A stretch of 24,543 nucleotides of DNA, taken from positions 1 to 24,543 of the IMG/VR virus record IMGVR_UViG_3300005662_000230; one strand, 5' to 3'. The stretch comes from a virus. Lineage: Duplodnaviria > Caudoviricetes. A model generated the notes under the pieces. It was not told the DNA's origin. It saw only the letters and a program-made list of their open reading frames with translations, and did no database searches. Position numbers and translations under genes: made by a program. Below, piece after piece: positions 13,155-24,543 of this stretch (the first letter of the stretch is position 1; each line of letters begins with the position of its first letter).

Positions 13155-13403
13155 ATGGACTCGCTCGTCGACCGCATTAGCGCGGCTGCAGCCGGCATCA
13201 AATCCGCTCCTCGCGGGTTTGAATCGCGGCTGCCGCCGGCCGTCCGCGAGCAGCTCCTAGAGATCCGCCGGCAGTGGCAGTCGGGTGATCTGCAAGTCTC
13301 CGCGTGCTGGCTGGCAGATCAGATCGTCGCCATGGCGGCGTCGGATGGATTCCCGGTGTGCGGTCGCCAAGGGCTCCGGCAATGGCTGACAAGGAAAGAC
13401 TGA
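13155..13403 (+). CDS. Hypothetical protein (82 aa, helical, possibly DNA-binding)
   Basis: ORF follows a promoter; C-terminal 'GRQGLRQWL' resembles a recognition helix. Confidence 0.6.
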   Translation: MDSLVDRISAAAAGIKSAPRGFESRLPPAVREQLLEIRRQWQSGDLQVSACWLADQIVAMAASDGFPVCGRQGLRQWLTRKD

Positions 13404-14578
13404 TCGACCGGGTGAAGGCCGCGGCCCCGCCGCCGGCTCCAGCCGCCGACGCCGAGCAAGTCACGAAGCGCCAGGACGGCGACGTGCTCGAGGCCCGGTC
13501 CACGTCGCGGACGATCCGCACGGTCGAGGATTTGCTGCGACACATTGAAGCGGACCTCGACCGCTACGAGGTCGCGGCCAGCGAAGCGACCAAATGGGAG
13601 TCGGCGAGCGTCGATCGAAATACCGGGCAGCCGGTGGTGACTGAGTTGTTCCGGGTGTTCGTGCGGCTCAAGCCGCGGGGCGGGCCGGGGATTCGCGAGT
13701 GCGTCGAAGCGATGATCGCGGCGGCGTCCGACCGTCTCCGCGTCCGCGGTTCGCGAATCGCGAACAAGCCTTCCCGCAAAGGGGCTTGGGCCGTGCTCGT
13801 CGTGGCCGATACGCATTTCGGCAAATACTGCTGGGAAAAGACAACCGGCGAAGCCGACTACGACCTCGACATAGCCGCGAAGCTGGTTGACGAGTCTGCC
13901 GGCGAGTTGCTGGCTATCGCCGACACTTACAAGCCCGGCCGCATGACGGTCGGGATGCTTGGCGATCTATTCCACTATGACCGTCCGGACGGCAGCACCA
14001 CCAGCGGCACACCGCTGGAGCGTGACGGCCGGCTGCAGAAGATGATCCAAGTCGGCACAGACTCGCTCATCGGCGTGATCGACAACGCGGCCGGCGTCGC
14101 ATTGGCTGACGTTGTGGTGGTCAACGGAAACCATGATGAGACTTTGACGTGGACACTGCATCGGCTTCTCGTTGAACGCTACCAGGCCCGTGGGCGAGTG
14201 ACGATCGACGAGAAGTTCACGCCGCGGAAGTACCTCGATCACGGCCGCAACCTCCTCGGGTTCGTTCACGGGCACCGGGCAAAGCGAAAGCTCCCGCAGC
14301 TCATGGCGATTGAGGCCGCGAAGGCTTGGGCACGCTGCCCATACCGCGAGATCCACACCGGGCATCTCCACCACCAGGCCGCGGAGTGGTCGCGGCCGAT
14401 CGAAACCCTTGATGGGGTGCTGGTTCGCGTTGCCCCGTCCCTCGGGCCGGCGGACGACTATCACGCGGTCAACGGCTGGCTGGGCCAACGGCGGGCGATG
14501 GAGTTGTTCATCTACGACGAAGCCGGCGGGCTGGTTGCCATGCACGTCGCCGGCCCACGGCTGGAGGTGCCGTCGTGA
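13382..14578 (+). CDS. Calcineurin-like metallophosphoesterase/nuclease
   Basis: All five motifs present: DTH, GDLFHYD, GNHD, HGH and GHLHH. Confidence 0.85.
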   Translation: MADKERLIDRVKAAAPPPAPAADAEQVTKRQDGDVLEARSTSRTIRTVEDLLRHIEADLDRYEVAASEATKWESASVDRNTGQPVVTELFRVFVRLKPRGGPGIRECVEAMIAAASDRLRVRGSRIANKPSRKGAWAVLVVADTHFGKYCWEKTTGEADYDLDIAAKLVDESAGELLAIADTYKPGRMTVGMLGDLFHYDRPDGSTTSGTPLERDGRLQKMIQVGTDSLIGVIDNAAGVALADVVVVNGNHDETLTWTLHRLLVERYQARGRVTIDEKFTPRKYLDHGRNLLGFVHGHRAKRKLPQLMAIEAAKAWARCPYREIHTGHLHHQAAEWSRPIETLDGVLVRVAPSLGPADDYHAVNGWLGQRRAMELFIYDEAGGLVAMHVAGPRLEVPS

Positions 14579-15180
14579 CAAAACCTATGCACTTAGAAAC
14601 TTCGGCAGAGGTTTTGTATCGCGAGCCGCTGACAGAGGAATACATCGCGACCGCCCTCCGCGATGCACGTCGATTCATGGGGTCGTGGTCTGGCACAAGT
14701 GGAAATCTGGCGGCACACACCGTGCGTCTCATAAATGAAAGGAAGCGAATGTTAGAAGCGAATCGAGAGAAAGAGGCCGGCGGGGCGATGCTGGAAGCAG
14801 CGTGGGAGAAATACAAACGGGACCAGATAGCCCCGGACGGCGAGCCGATCACCCGGCGGATTTACGGTGCCAGCGGCGATCGGCCGGAGCCGGAGCAGAC
14901 TCCCGCCGAGCAGTTGTGCTCGAGGACCGCCGAAGTGATCCGCGACCGTCGTCCCAAGTACGGCGGGCCGCAAAAGCATTTCGCCAGGACGGTCGGCATG
15001 GTCAACGCGGCGTTTGCCGACGTGCTCAAGCGACCGCTGACCGAAGCTGATTGGGCCACGATCATGATCCTCGACAAGATCGCCCGATTCCGGGGGCCGA
15101 ATGCCACGATCGACGGCCCGGTCGACATCGCCGGATATGCCGCGTGCTTGTACGAAGTCATGGACCGAGAGGGCCAGTGA
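14575..15180 (+). CDS. DUF6378-domain protein
   Basis: C-terminal 'DRRPKYGGP..HFART...MILDKIAR....D..VDIAGYAAC'. Confidence 0.75.
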   Translation: MTKPMHLETSAEVLYREPLTEEYIATALRDARRFMGSWSGTSGNLAAHTVRLINERKRMLEANREKEAGGAMLEAAWEKYKRDQIAPDGEPITRRIYGASGDRPEPEQTPAEQLCSRTAEVIRDRRPKYGGPQKHFARTVGMVNAAFADVLKRPLTEADWATIMILDKIARFRGPNATIDGPVDIAGYAACLYEVMDREGQ

Positions 15181-19196: not shown

Positions 19197-19622
19197 GTGA
19201 ACGAGGCTATCGCCCAACTGCAGGCACACGTTCGCTACCGGTTGGGCAGCCGCGTCACCTACGCCGAAGTCTGGCGGGTGGACCAGCTCACCCGGCTGGC
19301 GATCCGGCATTGGCCGCACAATCACCTGGAGGACGCGGAAGCCGGTGGCGGGCGGCATCATGCCGCGGTGTGCCATGCGTTGACGCTGATGCGGAGCCAG
19401 GTTCGCGAACAGTGGGAAGCCCGGCATGGGGCCGGGCCGCTATGGGACGTGGTGCTTGGCGGCACGACCTCGGCTATCGGGGTGGTGCTGCTCGATCTCT
19501 GGTGGCCGTCGAGGCCGTGGCGGTCGATCCTACGGGCGATGGGGCGGTCACTGGCCGACGATCGCCAGGACGGCGTCGATCGCGTCGTGGACCGCACGGG
19601 CGAGCCGCGAGTCGGTCCCTAG
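19197..19622 (+). CDS. Hypothetical protein (last + strand gene)
   Basis: 141 aa; its 3' end overlaps the convergent - strand ORF. Confidence 0.55.
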   Translation: MNEAIAQLQAHVRYRLGSRVTYAEVWRVDQLTRLAIRHWPHNHLEDAEAGGGRHHAAVCHALTLMRSQVREQWEARHGAGPLWDVVLGGTTSAIGVVLLDLWWPSRPWRSILRAMGRSLADDRQDGVDRVVDRTGEPRVGP

Positions 19623-19685
19623 TTCCTGCCCGATGCGGATCAGAAGCAGGCCGCGGATGGCGTCGGTCCAGGTGGGGCGGGTCAT
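19548..19685 (-). CDS. Small hypothetical protein (45 aa)
   Basis: ATGA coupling to the Prim-Pol stop; MTRPTWTDAIRGLLL... Confidence 0.45.
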   Translation of the reverse strand: MTRPTWTDAIRGLLLIRIGQELGTDSRLARAVHDAIDAVLAIVGQ

Positions 19686-20176
19686 GGAAGCACCTGTGCC
19701 GCAAGCAACTGGGCCGGGAACGGAGCAATCGGAACCTCTGCCGGGCTGGTTGTCCATTCGTATTTCGATCCGGACGGGTGGACGGACGGCGGGAGCACCG
19801 ATTGGGCGGCCCGACCGCCGATGCGGATCTCCAGGTCGTCGGCCTTGATGACGGCGGTCTCCGGCATCCAGGGTTCCCAGTGGTATAGCCGGTGCTCTCC
19901 TCGAGCCGATCGCCAGGTCGGGGTGGGAATGTCGAGCAACCCGAATGCGGCGAGCTGCTCGCGTCCCTCGCGCGTGTCGTATTCAACGTCGACGACGCCG
20001 GACATTGGGCCGAGCAGGATGCCGACGTTCGACCCGGCGGCGAGCCACCGGGCCACGTCGTCGTGGTTGTCCGTGGCTTTGGTTTGCCAAGCGGTGCCGA
20101 GCGGTCGTTTCTCACGGCGGGCGACCCGGATGATCAGGCAGCCGGAGTCGATGAGGGCGATGAGTTCGCGGGTCAT
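19682..20176 (-). CDS. Bifunctional DNA primase/polymerase (Prim-Pol) domain protein, stand-alone
   Basis: 'K.P....WQ..AT', 'NVGILLG..SGVVDVEYD', 'S.RGEH.LY' and 'VLPPSVHPSG..YEW'. Confidence 0.85.
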   Translation of the reverse strand: MTRELIALIDSGCLIIRVARREKRPLGTAWQTKATDNHDDVARWLAAGSNVGILLGPMSGVVDVEYDTREGREQLAAFGLLDIPTPTWRSARGEHRLYHWEPWMPETAVIKADDLEIRIGGRAAQSVLPPSVHPSGSKYEWTTSPAEVPIAPFPAQLLAAQVLP

Positions 20177-20367
20177 TCCTGGTCCCTCCCGCCGTTGATG
20201 TTCCGGCCCGTGTCGTCGAGGACATACCACTCATCGCCGGTGTAGTGCGTCTCGGCGTATTGGTTGGCAGCGGTGTCGTCTGCCGCCCGGAACGTGTCCA
20301 CCACGTCCCAGTCGCCATCGGTTAGGGGATAGGCGATTCGGTATTCGCGATCTTCTGTCGTGGTCAT
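20173..20367 (-). CDS. Small acidic protein (64 aa)
   Basis: CACAACC-AGGAG-ACCGAGACC-ATG leader; Asp/Glu-rich. Confidence 0.75.
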   Translation of the reverse strand: MTTTEDREYRIAYPLTDGDWDVVDTFRAADDTAANQYAETHYTGDEWYVLDDTGRNINGGRDQE

Positions 20368-20420
20368 GGTCTCGGTCTCCTGGTTGTGCGGCCTGGGCCG
20401 CGGGTTGTGGCACTGGTCTA

Positions 20421-20449
20421 GATATATTCGGTCGGCAATACGAAGTCAA
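20421..20449 (-). promoter_or_regulatory. Promoter with operator-like palindrome
   Basis: TTGACT-17-TATATC; 18-bp site at 20423-20440; A/T tract upstream. Confidence 0.55.
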
Positions 20450-20479
20450 CTTGGTTAGCAAAAAAACTCACGGGGGCGA

Positions 20480-20743
20480 TCAGTCGGCCGGCTTTTTGCG
20501 GCTACGCTTCCGGGCCAGCTTCTCCCGGCGGGCGATCGTCTCATCGGATTGCGGCCGGCCGGCGTTCGGGTGGCGCTCGAATGCCGCGGCTGCAGCCCGT
20601 AGGACAAACCATTGCCCGTCGATTTCGATGCCGGGCACCTTGCCGGCTTTGACGTGCTGGAGCATCCAGAAGCGTGAGACGTTCGCAAGGTCGGCGGCGG
20701 TGCCGACGCGAACGTAAAGCGAGGGGTCGATTTTTGGTGGCAT
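20480..20743 (-). CDS. HTH_17/excisionase-like DNA-binding protein
   Basis: 'YVRVGTAADLANVSRFWMLQHVKAGKVPGIEIDGQWFV' plus a basic tail. Confidence 0.8.
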   Translation of the reverse strand: MPPKIDPSLYVRVGTAADLANVSRFWMLQHVKAGKVPGIEIDGQWFVLRAAAAAFERHPNAGRPQSDETIARREKLARKRSRKKPAD

Positions 20744-20749
20744 GATGTC

Positions 20750-20777
20750 ATTTTTGCGGCCGGTTGCTGGTTGTCAA
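20750..20777 (-). promoter_or_regulatory. Putative leaderless promoter of the HTH gene
   Basis: TTGACA-16-AAAAAT-6 nt-ATG; no Shine-Dalgarno. Confidence 0.45.
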
Positions 20778-21049
20778 TACTGGGTTCGAGTAGTTGTCCA
20801 GTAGCCGAGAGCCGCGGCCTGGCATTCCGCGAGGCTTCCGTAGGTTCGGCCGTCGGCCGGCGATCGGTTGTCGCCGGTCGTGATGTAGTACGGGTAAAGG
20901 GCGGTGCCGTGGCCGCAGTGGCGGACGATCACCCCAGGTAGGTCGTCGCGGGTCCATGTCAGGTTTCGCCCCCACGGGCCGCGGCGGCCGATCCATTTCG
21001 CGGGCGTGGCCGCGGGCTCGAGGGCAAATAGCTGCAGTTGCGATGTCAT
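20774..21049 (-). CDS. Hypothetical protein (91 aa)
   Basis: Preceded by a CACAACC-rich leader; MTSQLQLFALEP...HCGH.TALYPYY. Confidence 0.7.
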   Translation of the reverse strand: MTSQLQLFALEPAATPAKWIGRRGPWGRNLTWTRDDLPGVIVRHCGHGTALYPYYITTGDNRSPADGRTYGSLAECQAAALGYWTTTRTQY

Positions 21050-21084
21050 TGGTTGTGGGTGTTGGTTTGGGTTGTGGTTGTCGA

Positions 21085-21333
21085 TCAAATCGCGGCACCG
21101 CTGGCGGGCGTGGCGTCCAGCTTGCCGGCCGTGTCCAGCACCCACCAACGGAATCCGGTCTCGGCGTCTAGCCGTCGTCCCTCGCGGATCGCGGCCTGGT
21201 GGGTCTGGTGGTTGAGCTGGCCGCCGGCGTCGATCGCGGCGATGTATGCGGCGAGGGTCCAGCGGTTTCGCTGGTGGTCGTCGGCCGCGAACGTCAAGGA
21301 ATGGGGGGCTAGGTGAAAGCGGTTGGCGGGCAT
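21085..21333 (-). CDS. Hypothetical protein (82 aa)
   Basis: CACAACC x4-AGGAG leader. Confidence 0.75.
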   Translation of the reverse strand: MPANRFHLAPHSLTFAADDHQRNRWTLAAYIAAIDAGGQLNHQTHQAAIREGRRLDAETGFRWWVLDTAGKLDATPASGAAI

Positions 21334-21384
21334 GGTTGTGTGGCTCCTGGTTGTGGGGTTGTGGGTTGTGGTTGTGGTTGTCGA

Positions 21385-21606
21385 TCACCAGCCGTACACG
21401 TCACCGCATGGGTAGACCTCGGCGATCAGCACGCCGTCGAACGCTTCGTATTCGGCGGTGTGCGTGTAGTCGTTGTCGACGACTCGCACGGCACGCGAGT
21501 CGTAGGCGCTGTCCATTTCGATAACGGCCATCGTGCGGCCGGTCTCGCGGGCGATGCGTCGGGCCTTGGCGATTGCTTGGGGGGCGTAGAGCGGGGCGGC
21601 GGGCAT
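21385..21606 (-). CDS. Hypothetical protein (73 aa)
   Basis: CACAACCACAACC-AAGGAG-AACCAGACC-ATG leader; MPAAPLYAPQ... Confidence 0.75.
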   Translation of the reverse strand: MPAAPLYAPQAIAKARRIARETGRTMAVIEMDSAYDSRAVRVVDNDYTHTAEYEAFDGVLIAEVYPCGDVYGW

Positions 21607-21713
21607 GGTCTGGTTCTCCTTGGTTGTGGTTGTGGGTCTCGGTGGCCGGCGATCGCCGGGCCGGCCCGGTTCCCGCCGTCCCCGGTGGGGCGGCGGTGGC
21701 CGGGGCGGCCGGG

Positions 21714-22022
21714 TCAGTCGTCGAGCCCCTCGGCGAGATCCCAAGCGGCCGCGGCTGCAGCGGCGGCTATCTCGTTGGTTGTGGGGCGGCGGCGCTTGCC
21801 GCCGCGGGCCCGGCGGGCCAGCTCGTCGGCACAGTAGTTGATCTCGTCGAGGTAGTAGCCGTAGTTCGGCTGCTCGGGCCATGCGGCGAGGACTGCTTGG
21901 CAATCGGCGATGACGAACAGAAGTTCGGCATCGGATCGCGTGCGGCACAGTTTGGGATAGGCCGCGTGGTCGATCTGCTTGGTGGGGCATCCGTAAACGT
22001 TGTCGGTGGTTGTGGCGTTCAT
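21714..22022 (-). CDS. Hypothetical helical protein (102 aa)
   Basis: Repeat leader with GAGGAG; 'EL.FVIADC...GYYLDEINYC..EL.RR'. Confidence 0.75.
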   Translation of the reverse strand: MNATTTDNVYGCPTKQIDHAAYPKLCRTRSDAELLFVIADCQAVLAAWPEQPNYGYYLDEINYCADELARRARGGKRRRPTTNEIAAAAAAAAWDLAEGLDD

Positions 22023-22125
22023 GGTCTCGGCTCCTCGGGGGTTGTGGTTGTGGGTTGTGGGCAACGTGCCCGGCATCCCCCTGGCCGGCCGCGGCGGATG
22101 CCGGGGCCGGCGTGGGGGCGGCCGG

Positions 22126-22470
22126 TCAGGCCGCGGGGGCGATTACTCGGCGATCGGCTGACACTGCGGCGAGGATGTCGGCGGCCGCCGTGTCGTCTCG
22201 GGCGACCGTCTCGCGAGTCTCGGTTGTGGTGAACACGTCGATGTCGCCAATGGTCCAACGGTCTGCGGCATCGCGGAACACCGTCACGCGGGCAACCCTC
22301 CACGATGGGCCATCGTGGGGAAGGTGGCACCAATACTCGCGGGCATCGTCGGCACGCATCAAGCCGCCCGCGGCCGGTCGGCTCCAGGAATCAAGGGCCG
22401 CGGCACCGTCGCCGATTTGCTGGCAAATCATGTCGCGGTCCGCGGCGGTTAGCTTCTGGTCGATCGTCAT
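22126..22470 (-). CDS. Hypothetical protein (114 aa)
   Basis: Repeat leader with AAGGAG. Confidence 0.75.
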   Translation of the reverse strand: MTIDQKLTAADRDMICQQIGDGAAALDSWSRPAAGGLMRADDAREYWCHLPHDGPSWRVARVTVFRDAADRWTIGDIDVFTTTETRETVARDDTAAADILAAVSADRRVIAPAA

Positions 22471-22580
22471 GGTCTAGGCTCCTTGGTTGTGGTTGTGGTG
22501 GGTTGTGGTCGGGCGTTGTGCCCGGCCGCCCGGTTTCCGGCCGCCGGCGGCGGCGGCCGGTGGCCGGGGGGCCGCGGCGA

Positions 22581-22841
22581 TCAGTTGGGGAAACCCTCTC
22601 GCCAGTAGCACGGGGCCGGCTGGTCGTCGTCGTCCTGGTCGTCGTCACCGGCGACGGCTTCGCCGATGTACTCCTCGACGCCGCTCGCGTCGTCGTCGAG
22701 CCGATAGACGCTGGCGGATTCGCCATCGTCGGCCCCCTCGTCGGCCAGTAGTTCGCGGACGTAGTCGATAGCCGCGGAGTCGGTGACGGCGTCGAATCGT
22801 GTCGACGGGCCCCGGTCGAATCGTGCTAGGTAGTCGGGCAT
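22581..22841 (-). CDS. Very acidic small protein (86 aa)
   Basis: Repeat leader with AGGAG; 'DDDQDDDDQ'. Confidence 0.75.
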   Translation of the reverse strand: MPDYLARFDRGPSTRFDAVTDSAAIDYVRELLADEGADDGESASVYRLDDDASGVEEYIGEAVAGDDDQDDDDQPAPCYWREGFPN

Positions 22842-22936
22842 GGCGTGGGCTCCTGGTTGTGGTTGTGGGTCGGTCGAGAGTCGGCCGCCCGTTTGCCCCC
22901 GCCCGTGGGCGACGGGGGGCGACGGGGGGCCGGCGG

Positions 22937-23488
22937 TCAGTTGTTGGTGAAAACCCAAACACCGCCGGGGCCGCGGATCGTCTCAACGTCGCCGGACAGC
23001 TCCAGGTCTCGGGCCATGCGGTCCCAGTCGACATAGTGGGCGGGGTGCCACCATTGGCCGGCCGCGGCCTTGTCGGCGTCCTGGTTGTGGCCCATGTCGT
23101 CCCATAGGTTTTCAACGTAGTCGGCGAGCGTGTCCCATTCGCCGCGGAACACGTCTGCGAAGTCGTCGGGGTCGCGGCCTGGTTCGTTGCCAAGCCAAGC
23201 CAAGAGCGCCGCGGCATCGTCGCCGGCCGCCGCGACGGCCTGGCCGATCGACGAGACGCGATCGAATGATTCCCATTCGCCGATCGAGCCGAGCCCCTCA
23301 TGGTCATGAATCGCCCATTCTTCGGCACCAGGTTCGGGCGATGCTGCGAGCATCTCCGCGACCTGGTCGCGGATGTCGTCGGCGTCTTGGTTGGCGTCAA
23401 TCCATCGGCCGTGGAGTCGGCCGGAGTTGTAAGCCGCGAGGCACGCGACATACACGCGGGGAGTCGGGTTGTTGGTTGTGGCGTTCAT
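22937..23488 (-). CDS. ardA: Antirestriction protein ArdA
   Basis: 'PRVYVACLAAYNSGRLHGRWIDA', 'EEWAIHDHEG', 'F.GEWD' and 'YVDWDRMARDL..SGD'; acidic. Confidence 0.93.
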   Translation of the reverse strand: MNATTNNPTPRVYVACLAAYNSGRLHGRWIDANQDADDIRDQVAEMLAASPEPGAEEWAIHDHEGLGSIGEWESFDRVSSIGQAVAAAGDDAAALLAWLGNEPGRDPDDFADVFRGEWDTLADYVENLWDDMGHNQDADKAAAGQWWHPAHYVDWDRMARDLELSGDVETIRGPGGVWVFTNN

Positions 23489-23560
23489 CGTCGTTTCTCC
23501 GTTCAAGTGTTCCGGCCGATTGAATCCCGCGGCCGGGTCGGGTTGTGTTGCTGGTTGTGT

Positions 23561-23589
23561 GGTATTGGCGATCGACAATATAGGATCAA
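23561..23589 (-). promoter_or_regulatory. ardA-operon promoter with operator-like palindrome
   Basis: TTGATC-17-AATACC; palindrome TATTGGCGATCGACAATA at 23563-23580. Confidence 0.55.
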
Positions 23590-24170
23590 AACGGGGCGGA
23601 TTCAAGGTGAGCACGAAGCCGGGGACGGCCGGCCGTCGGATGGCGGCTGAAAAACGCAACGTCGACCGCGGCAACCTCCCAGCGACGGCCGACCTTGCGG
23701 CCGCGGACCTTGCCGGCTTTCACCAGTTGTCGCAACCATTGTTCGGTTATGTCGGCCGCGGCCGCGGCGGCTACCAAACCCGTCCACGTCGTTTCCACGT
23801 CGTCGGCGCTGGCTTGGTCGATCATTCGGTCGATCACTTCCGCCATCACGTCGTCGGCCGGCCGCATTCCGGGGGCAGCGGCGGCCAGCTCCTCATACAA
23901 CTCGTCTGCATTCATGCCGCGGCCGGCCGCTGTCACGTCCAGACCGCGAATGTAGGTTGCATCCCCGCCCGTGAATGCTGCCCGGTTCCGCGCCTTCCAG
24001 TGCCCGCCGTGAGTGTCGCCACAAGAAGCCTGGAAAGCCTCACGGCGGAAGGTGCCGATACGCTCGAGCTCAGCGGCTTCAATCGCACGGACCTCACGGT
24101 AGGCGGCAAGTACGGTCGGCCACTCGATGCCCGCGGCCGCCGCTCGTTCTTTGTGTTCGTTCGTGTTCAT
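23586..24170 (-). CDS. Protein with unknown N-domain and C-terminal HTH_17-like domain
   Basis: C-terminal 'AADITEQWLRQLVKAGKVRGRKVGRRWEV......F.RHPTAGRP' is paralogous to 20480-20743. Confidence 0.75.
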   Translation of the reverse strand: MNTNEHKERAAAAGIEWPTVLAAYREVRAIEAAELERIGTFRREAFQASCGDTHGGHWKARNRAAFTGGDATYIRGLDVTAAGRGMNADELYEELAAAAPGMRPADDVMAEVIDRMIDQASADDVETTWTGLVAAAAAADITEQWLRQLVKAGKVRGRKVGRRWEVAAVDVAFFSRHPTAGRPRLRAHLESAPF

Positions 24171-24176
24171 GTCGTT

Positions 24177-24205
24177 AGTATCGTCGATCGTCAATACGGC
24201 GTCCA
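24177..24205 (-). promoter_or_regulatory. Leaderless promoter with operator-like palindrome
   Basis: TGGACG-17-GATACT-6 nt-ATG; site TATCGTCGATCGTCAATA at 24179-24196; A/T tracts at about 24215-24230. Confidence 0.55.
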
Positions 24206-24252
24206 GTGCTCCACCAAAAAAATCTTTTTTGCGGGAAACCCGGGCGGCAGTG

Positions 24253-24270
24253 TATTGGCGATCGCCAATG
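24253..24270. promoter_or_regulatory. Fourth operator-like palindrome
   Basis: TATTGGCGATCGCCAATG, with a perfect 16-bp inner palindrome. Confidence 0.6.
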
Positions 24271-24302
24271 GACACTTGGCAAACGCGAAACCGGACGGTG
24301 CC

Positions 24303-24386
24303 GACCATTGACCATTGACCATCGACCATCGACCATCGACCATCGACCATCGACCATCGACCATCGACCATCGACCATCGACCATC
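24303..24386. repeat. Tandem 7-mer array (GACCATY) x12
   Basis: Two GACCATT followed by ten GACCATC. Confidence 0.97.
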
Positions 24387-24415
24387 GGTCACCAGGTCAC
24401 CAGGTCACCAGGTCA
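24387..24415. repeat. Tandem 8-mer array (GGTCACCA) x3.6
   Basis: Directly abuts the 7-mer array. Confidence 0.95.
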
Positions 24416-24449
24416 ACGACCTTGTGACGGTCGGCCGGTCGTGATGGCC

Positions 24450-24530
24450 GGCCATCGAAATACCATCGCGGCCGCGGCGGTCGGCTATCGAAATACTCGC
24501 GGGCGGGGTTGTGGGGCTATCGAAATACTC
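24450..24530. repeat. Three phased direct repeats GGCYATCGAAATAC(TC)
   Basis: Copies start at 24450, 24483 and 24515 (33 and 32 bp period). Confidence 0.9.
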
Positions 24531-24543
24531 CCCGCGCGTGTAC

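Follow-up and report, generated by a model that had tools for sequence, protein, structure and literature searches.

An uncatalogued, structure-conserved hairpin between the reordered small genes of a tailed-phage family, with a possible role in message processing

The DNA analyzed here, hereafter the window, is a stretch of 24,543 nt that makes up an entire IMG/VR record (IMGVR_UViG_3300005662_000230) and represents a tailed-phage fragment. Matches to Pfam and PHROG profiles place genes for capsid, head decoration and tape measure proteins on the plus strand; after the tail module, a metallophosphoesterase (DNA-repair-exonuclease-like) gene and then a DUF6378 gene were found at 13394-15180 (+). 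Small minus-strand genes form an array running from 24170 to about 19550, and its content includes ArdA, a Prim-Pol gene and two weak HTH-like genes by Pfam and PHROGs. The HTH-like genes, at 23586-24170 and 20480-20743, are candidate regulators. Tandem repeats (12.3 copies of a 7-mer, 3.6 of an 8-mer and 2.5 of a 32-mer) occupy 24302-24528, upstream of the array. In many relatives the contig starts at a point 230-700 nt before the first array gene, which may indicate an att site or a hard-to-assemble repeat there.

All features of the array described below are on the minus strand. The first gene, F4 (194 aa; 23586-24170), has a weak excisionase/HTH-like C-terminus (phrog_1840, E 1.8e-5) and relatives in 28 loci. 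A putative sigma70-like promoter with a 9/12 match (23577-23605) stands ahead of the ArdA anti-restriction gene (22937-23488; PF07275, E 1.9e-34), and it overlaps a short palindrome that is a possible operator. The slot of ArdA is occupied in relatives by ArdC (PF08401 + PF18818) or a 332-aa gene (L262:2130-3083; L289:8686-9639). A short palindrome with a CGAT core overlaps the -10 region of the promoter-like spacers at 23577-23605, about 20420-20450 and about 24190-24210, and recurs in those of relatives (L244:959, L263:966 and L274:9434); it is likely an operator.

Behind ArdA lies Hairpin A (22882-22932), which consists of 5 bp, a C.C mismatch, 5 bp, a 3x3 internal loop and 8 bp. A CACAAC leader with a GGAG ribosome-binding site (22842-22881) then leads into the orphan cassette gene F13 (86 aa; 22581-22841), which is without a Pfam or PHROG match. 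Hairpin B (22523-22574) has the same build with 10 bp above the loop, and is followed by a small second hairpin, a CACAAC leader and a ribosome-binding site (22471-22522) and by the orphan cassette gene F3 (114 aa; 22126-22470). Hairpin C (22071-22124) is a variant with two 2x2 loops and a C.C mismatch in its upper stem; the same three leader parts (22023-22070) separate it from the orphan cassette gene F0 (102 aa; 21714-22022), the commonest cassette, with 41 calls in 49 sources. Hairpin D (21659-21710; 5 bp, C.C, 5 bp, 3x3 loop and 6+4 bp with a bulged A) is again followed by a small second hairpin, a CACAAC leader and a ribosome-binding site (21607-21658). These four leader segments are treated below as exchange zones. 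The orphan genes F11 (73 aa; 21385-21606) and F20 (82 aa; 21085-21333) are each followed by a short hairpin-less CACAAC spacer, and an orphan gene of 91 aa (20774-21049) is the last of the unit, the next promoter candidate being at 20777-20750. Hairpins thus occupy the first four junctions after the promoter candidate, 2-7 nt after the stop codons, and short spacers the last two. A promoter search over 19400-24543 returned two promoter-like sites, neither of them in a hairpin spacer. In 20001-24000, the minus strand has 27 occurrences of the CACAAC word and the plus strand has none; these tracts run into the gene starts and hence give Thr-rich N-termini.

The initial annotation had proposed three minus-strand copies of one hairpin and a diverged fourth. 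The anatomy claimed for the three (22882-22932, 22523-22574 and 21659-21710) was found as described, namely 5 bp, C.C, 5 bp, 3x3 loop and a stem of 8-10 bp. A structural descriptor of this fold matched three times in 21544-23143 and not once in any of 200 Markov-1 resamples, and the MFE z-scores of the three folded spacers were -1.46, -3.62 and -2.50, respectively. As for the fourth copy, a hairpin does exist at about 22071-22124, but the inner pairing assigned to it was misfolded: the claimed fold reached -28.5 kcal/mol vs -50.7 kcal/mol for a long hairpin, which was kept in 9/9 distinct contexts examined, while the claimed fold failed in 3. In this Hairpin C, the C.C mismatch sits above the central loop, not below it.

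Related loci were collected by protein and pattern searches, and 49 sources, several of them the same or nearly the same phage, were analyzed. They contained 103 hairpin copies, 67 of them distinct, and this family size is a lower bound. The consensus is about 52 nt long and comprises 5 bp, a pyrimidine-C mismatch, 5 bp, a 3x3 loop and an upper stem of 8-10 bp. The distance from the stop codon to the hairpin start was between -1 and +6 nt for each of the 67 distinct copies, in a search that was anchored on stop codons. The initial annotation had noted that a U-tract was missing, and this held throughout: none of the 67 has four or more T in the next 12 nt, and the reading as an intrinsic U-tract terminator was rejected. 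Hairpins are gained and lost between junctions, F0 being followed by one at 19/32 junctions and F11 at 1/9. A second class of spacer occurs late in arrays, with a perfect 10-12 bp GC hairpin that has neither a mismatch nor a U-tract (L265:4459, L134:7313, L245:1852 and L286:2799).

Fourteen of the 67 distinct copies were variant or misregistered and were set aside; without the apical loop, the remaining 53 collapsed to 45 distinct rows. The mismatch, initially called an invariant C.C, is strongly kept yet not invariant: the 45 canonical rows had C.C in 33, T.C in 7, C.A in 2 and T.G, A.C and C-G in 1 each, so that the position was Watson-Crick in 1/45. Unpaired positions were C or A in 86% (311/360), and four stem positions had invariant pairs. 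The pairs closing the 3x3 loop are mirror images, G-C in 36/45 rows and C-G in 43/45. The loop itself appears to be kept open, since a G on its 3' side faces A in 5/9 cases and C in only 2/21 (11 loop types, p 0.014, the types not being independent). A second weak spot, 6 bp above the loop, was Watson-Crick in 29/45 rows. The apical part, which had been described as free, is so in sequence, no conservation of the apical loop being found across the family hairpins, but not in size, which was 21-26 nt in the 53 hairpins.

Because MAFFT misregistered arms of unequal length, covariation was reassessed on structure-anchored columns and on a model-fitted alignment; both were built with the structure in mind, and their figures therefore lean in its favor. 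With a null in which substitutions were re-placed along the tree, four pairs stood out, one of them from the second stem and the other three apical, all at the lowest E that the test could give (0.017). Covariation was thus significant in these two stems but not for the basal GGCCG/CGGCC vs CGGCC/GGCCG swap cited at first, which amounts to about one tree event (0.6-1.0 events per pair; E 0.45-2.3). The basal stem contributed an off-helix pair as well (E 0.033), owing to the one-base register slide behind this same example. Summed over pairs, roughly two dozen compensatory events were placed on the tree. In the model-fitted alignment, which includes antisense duplicates, 95.9% of cells pair, and the covariation score was 0.406 vs 0.014-0.088 for slid registers. 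An alternative pairing, in which the basal 3' arm switches to a downstream CGAC word, was possible in 45/68 cases vs a shuffled mean of 34.5 and maximum of 43; it was only weakly above the control, and we do not put it forward.

These figures bear on a neutral reading, in which replication errors that form palindromes gave rise to the hairpins and recombination copied them between junctions. The copies are indeed related by descent and are gained and lost, as at the F0 and F11 junctions. However, the compensatory events maintain pairing while the mismatch and the 3x3 loop never close (the single C-G row apart), with a structure score well above those of slid registers. We consider a neutral origin very improbable. 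Collectively, the comparison of copies supports the repeating stop-hairpin-leader-gene unit that had been proposed, and indicates that its element is a real, uncatalogued, structure-conserved hairpin.

The assignment to no recognized family was sustained, as an Rfam search of 19500-24543 returned, at E up to 5, 3 matches that fell far short of the gathering score, and within the terms searched no description of the element was found in the open-access literature. A covariance model built from 12 copies matched 34/52 family-search sources. On a background of 80 loci from about 2800 mostly unrelated stretches with a loose DNA pattern, plus 20 from another search, it matched 1/100, namely L168, which has the same stop-hairpin-leader anatomy. 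When about 93 candidates were scored in each of 61 genomes from the host's order, the only match was the phage contig. GenBank phages gave 20 short chance-level matches, none covering more than 5% of the query. Five sequencing runs that contained at least half of the sampled words were freshwater metagenomes from three studies, one of them possibly the source.

The phage contig, 42.8 kb long, belongs to a Pirellulales MAG, and its first array gene is 79% identical to that of the window. It encodes a portal, a capsid, a terminase, a tyrosine integrase and an anti-restriction protein, together with a Sak4-like annealase (E 5e-46) and a RuvC-like resolvase. Given this gene content and the MAG placement, the hairpin-bearing phage family is probably temperate and probably infects Planctomycetota, the host link being one MAG contig. 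The same MAG, as the putative host, encodes a full-length RNase III (PF00636).

The hairpin-bearing spacers are about 90-113 nt long, and gene order around them varies widely among relatives: 14 family pairs, the families being loose BLAST clusters, were found in both orders among 33 distinct orders. Hairpin identity averaged 0.93 where the upstream gene end was shared (49 pairs), 0.72 where the downstream start was shared (80 pairs) and 0.64 in the background (3508 pairs), the pairs in each set not being independent. The hairpins thus travel mostly with the upstream gene. At the 33 of 89 junctions that had both kinds of partner, upstream-linked identity ended at a median of +24 nt past the stem and downstream-linked identity began at +33; the latter reached within 5 nt of the stem foot at 1/33. 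Among nine contig joints from four runs, several with fewer than 30 matched bases on one side, 6 had both ends in leader or start regions and 0 lay inside a hairpin. These positions suggest that exchanges fall 20-35 nt downstream of the hairpin, in the CACAAC leaders. In addition, hairpins that are nearly identical form clusters in which the 5' foot varies and 2-8 different upstream gene ends are represented. Because hairpins also change their upstream partner, neither end of the spacer has a sharp exchange point, a pattern that short-homology recombination would leave if only products with intact hairpins were retained. One 623-nt contig, from run X6 (window 21621-22843), joins the end of F13, F0 and the start of F13, with two F13 variants alongside; it may stem from a genome with the cassette in duplicate or from a circle of two cassettes.

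An ssDNA recombination site had been suggested for the hairpin, with integron attC sites as a parallel, and in its fuller form this reading makes the antisense ssDNA hairpin a recombination site for the upstream tyrosine recombinase, in a phage mini-integron with a non-IntI enzyme. It would account for the permuted gene-plus-hairpin units, found in both orders for 14 family pairs, and for the link between hairpin and upstream gene (0.93 vs 0.64). A tyrosine recombinase was found upstream of the array in 22/35 loci, the other 13 having less than 700 nt of upstream DNA. The antisense strand was more stable in 66/67 hairpins, by 6.4 kcal/mol as RNA and 3.9 kcal/mol as DNA, and attC bottom strands are described as folding more stably too, through G:T mispairs (PMC5027507). 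However, the strand bias may be a by-product of the A/C-rich sense strand, which extends over the whole region. No antisense wobble was kept in the loop, where A faced C once in 33 positions. The mismatches are symmetric rather than extrahelical, and neither R boxes (RYYYAAC / GTTRRRY) nor GTT were found at the stem foot in any of the 67 distinct hairpins. The breakpoints also speak against it, since downstream-linked identity came to the stem foot in a single junction of 33, no joint fell inside a hairpin, and near-identical hairpins stand behind several upstream gene ends.

The recombinase itself gave a weak PF00589 match and may be an ordinary prophage integrase. Three recombinases searched against NCBIfam had weak Xer-type matches far below the cut-off and none to an IntI-specific model, and no solved-structure match was found for the one of the three that was searched. 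An integron attC site is therefore not supported for the element as such, and a mini-integron around it is improbable. Its extension, in which the antisense hairpin guides the adjacent non-IntI enzyme to excise and reorder anti-defense cassettes by cutting at a distance, in the CACAAC leader, strikes us as decidedly improbable.

A closer parallel for the shuffling comes from the PeSLs of T4-like phages, described as repeated spacers of about 100 nt with a stem-loop between orphan genes (PMC2839356, PMC4122927). Recombination between them shuffles genes, with reported crossover points lying after the -10 box and ahead of the start codon (PMC2839356). Given the absence of attC boxes (0/67) and the Sak4-like annealase of the relative, the shuffling looks PeSL-like rather than integron-like, and comparison of the junctions supports the view that the spacer works like a PeSL spacer in this respect. 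Sak4 is described as an ATP-dependent annealase that promotes low-level recombination (PMC5928155), and the Sak4-like protein may act in the cassette shuffling.

We next consider what the hairpin may do in the message. Its position and geometry are compatible with a role in RNA processing or stability. An ideal substrate of RNase III is reported to measure 22 bp, with loops limiting cleavage and leaving stabilizing 3' hairpins (PMC3867540, PMC1540722); the helix here, with 11 positions below the 3x3 loop and 8-10 bp above it, is of about that length. RNase III of S. coelicolor is described as preferring poly(G).poly(C) and as cutting an intergenic hairpin on either side of its [4/4] loop (PMC10126417). 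Against cleavage, the stems are almost all G-C, and E. coli RNase III is reported to be inhibited by GC/CG pairs beside the cut site (PMC1540722). The pairs flanking the loop were G-C/C-G in nearly all rows, contrary to the proximal and distal box rules of E. coli; these rules may not transfer, as the enzyme of GC-rich Streptomyces differs. The greater stability of the antisense strand in 66/67 hairpins also weighs against a role of the sense RNA, as do isolated stem departures, which showed no G.U excess on the sense strand (5 G.U contexts vs 9 A.C/C.A, some of them the same event in another register). Compensatory changes can also come about at the DNA level in quasi-palindromes, although such correction would remove the mismatches instead of preserving them. 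The gene pair F0>F17 has a hairpin spacer in L286 and, by eye, a promoter-like spacer in L132, L145 and L262, of which a regex called only L262 promoter-like. At its end, the promoter-like spacer of these three has the small hairpin, CACAAC tract and ribosome-binding site that also close the hairpin spacer.

The all-GC stems, which are antideterminants for E. coli RNase III, favor a reading in which the hairpin is never cut, its mismatches avoiding RNase III, and a REP-like 3' exonuclease block or a U-less attenuator gives successive cistrons different lifetimes or levels. The spacers fold at about -36 to -55 kcal/mol directly after stop codons with no U-tract in any of the 67, and the perfect U-less hairpins later in the same arrays point the same way, as does the placement of the window hairpins at the first four junctions past the promoter candidate and of short spacers at the last two. 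However, a pure barrier would need neither the fixed 5/1/5/3x3 register nor an apical domain of 21-26 nt, and a simpler design does exist, as seen in the perfect hairpins elsewhere. Strong termination at the hairpins would moreover silence the downstream genes, since no promoter-like site follows them. We regard an uncut barrier as possible but unlikely.

The conserved features can also be read as a protein-binding site, with the hairpin, as RNA or as a DNA palindrome, serving antitermination, translational control or operator function and not being a nuclease substrate. The invariant pairs at four stem positions and the conserved mismatch and loop suggest specific read-out, and the array encodes several small proteins of unknown function along with the two HTH-like proteins. 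Yet the apical loop sequence is not conserved, the element follows genes rather than promoters, the ribosome-binding site is uncovered about 24-40 nt downstream, and the promoter-type spacers have separate palindromes of their own. Nothing pointed to antitermination specifically, a role that the initial annotation had listed. Protein binding as the function of the hairpin is, in our judgment, quite improbable.

Some role of the hairpin in cutting or protecting the mRNA appears probable. The specific version, which we put forward tentatively and which may well prove wrong, is that the hairpin is a cut-and-protect signal for, most likely, the host RNase III, with the genes shuffled separately by short-homology recombination in the flanking leaders. 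A long transcript would start at an upstream promoter, and each spacer would fold into an 11-position lower helix, the 3x3 A/C-rich loop and an upper helix of 8-10 bp, a two-turn, roughly two-fold shape that an RNase III dimer could straddle. After a cut at the 3x3 loop, the upstream cistron would keep a protective stem at its 3' end, and the downstream cistron would then begin like a promoter-made message, with the small hairpin, an unstructured CACAAC leader and a ribosome-binding site. Gene-plus-hairpin cassettes would be swapped by an annealase such as the Sak4-like protein with expression signals intact, because leaders and the stop-codon foot are alike at every junction.

The analysis adds an uncatalogued structured element with strong comparative support to the phages of a poorly studied phylum, and links it to a cassette array, with the anti-restriction genes ArdA and ArdC among its members, whose gene order changes rapidly. 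Should the hairpins prove to be cut by RNase III, the family would provide a natural set of 67 GC-rich substrate variants, and one spacer design would serve both message punctuation and gene shuffling. The kind of element is itself already known, from the T7 sites and the PeSLs.

Several known systems resemble parts of this arrangement. The CUP repeats of IncN plasmids and the SAS/ESAS of cluster K mycobacteriophages are promoter or start-site motifs. They likewise are repeated leaders ahead of ardA-type or accessory genes, whereas the element here is a covarying hairpin tied to the upstream stop codon. Like REP elements with TnpA-REP (PMC8266576), the hairpin directly follows stop codons and is an imperfect palindrome whose mismatch bulge is conserved. 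Unlike them, it has a GTAG foot in only 7/67 copies, where this is the TAG stop, and it is not dispersed, with no match in 60 other genomes of the host's order (about 93 candidates scored in each); no HUH/Y1 transposase was found among 51 and 32 ORFs of a near-complete relative by PHROGs and Pfam. With the integron attC site as described (PMC5027507), it shares an imperfect palindrome behind the gene that travels with it, a bottom strand that folds better and an adjoining tyrosine recombinase. It differs from attC in having no RYYYAAC/GTTRRRY boxes and no extrahelical bases, in crossovers about 25-35 nt off the stem and in a recombinase that is not IntI-like by profile. As in the PeSLs, repeated spacers are exchange points for the flanking orphan genes, including near the Shine-Dalgarno. 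PeSLs are described as holding a strong sigma70 promoter and a proven terminator (PMC2839356, PMC4122927); the hairpin spacers of the window, in contrast, have no sigma70-like promoter or U-tract and have a conserved internal hairpin register. By the tests run, the element does not belong to the attC, REP or PeSL families.

The early message of T7 is processed at intergenic RNase III sites of the R1.1 type. Like these sites and the RNase III hairpin of S. coelicolor rpsO-pnp, the element is intercistronic, spans about two helical turns, has a central internal loop and lacks a U-tract, and as in T7 it lies in a phage operon of accessory or early type with an anti-restriction gene. What sets it apart from both is the symmetric 3x3 loop, the fixed pyrimidine-C mismatch, the almost all-GC stems and the exchangeable cassettes, and its cleavage is inferred. 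The rpsO-pnp hairpin provides a GC-rich precedent (PMC10126417), and for expression the hairpin described here probably works like a T7-type processing hairpin.
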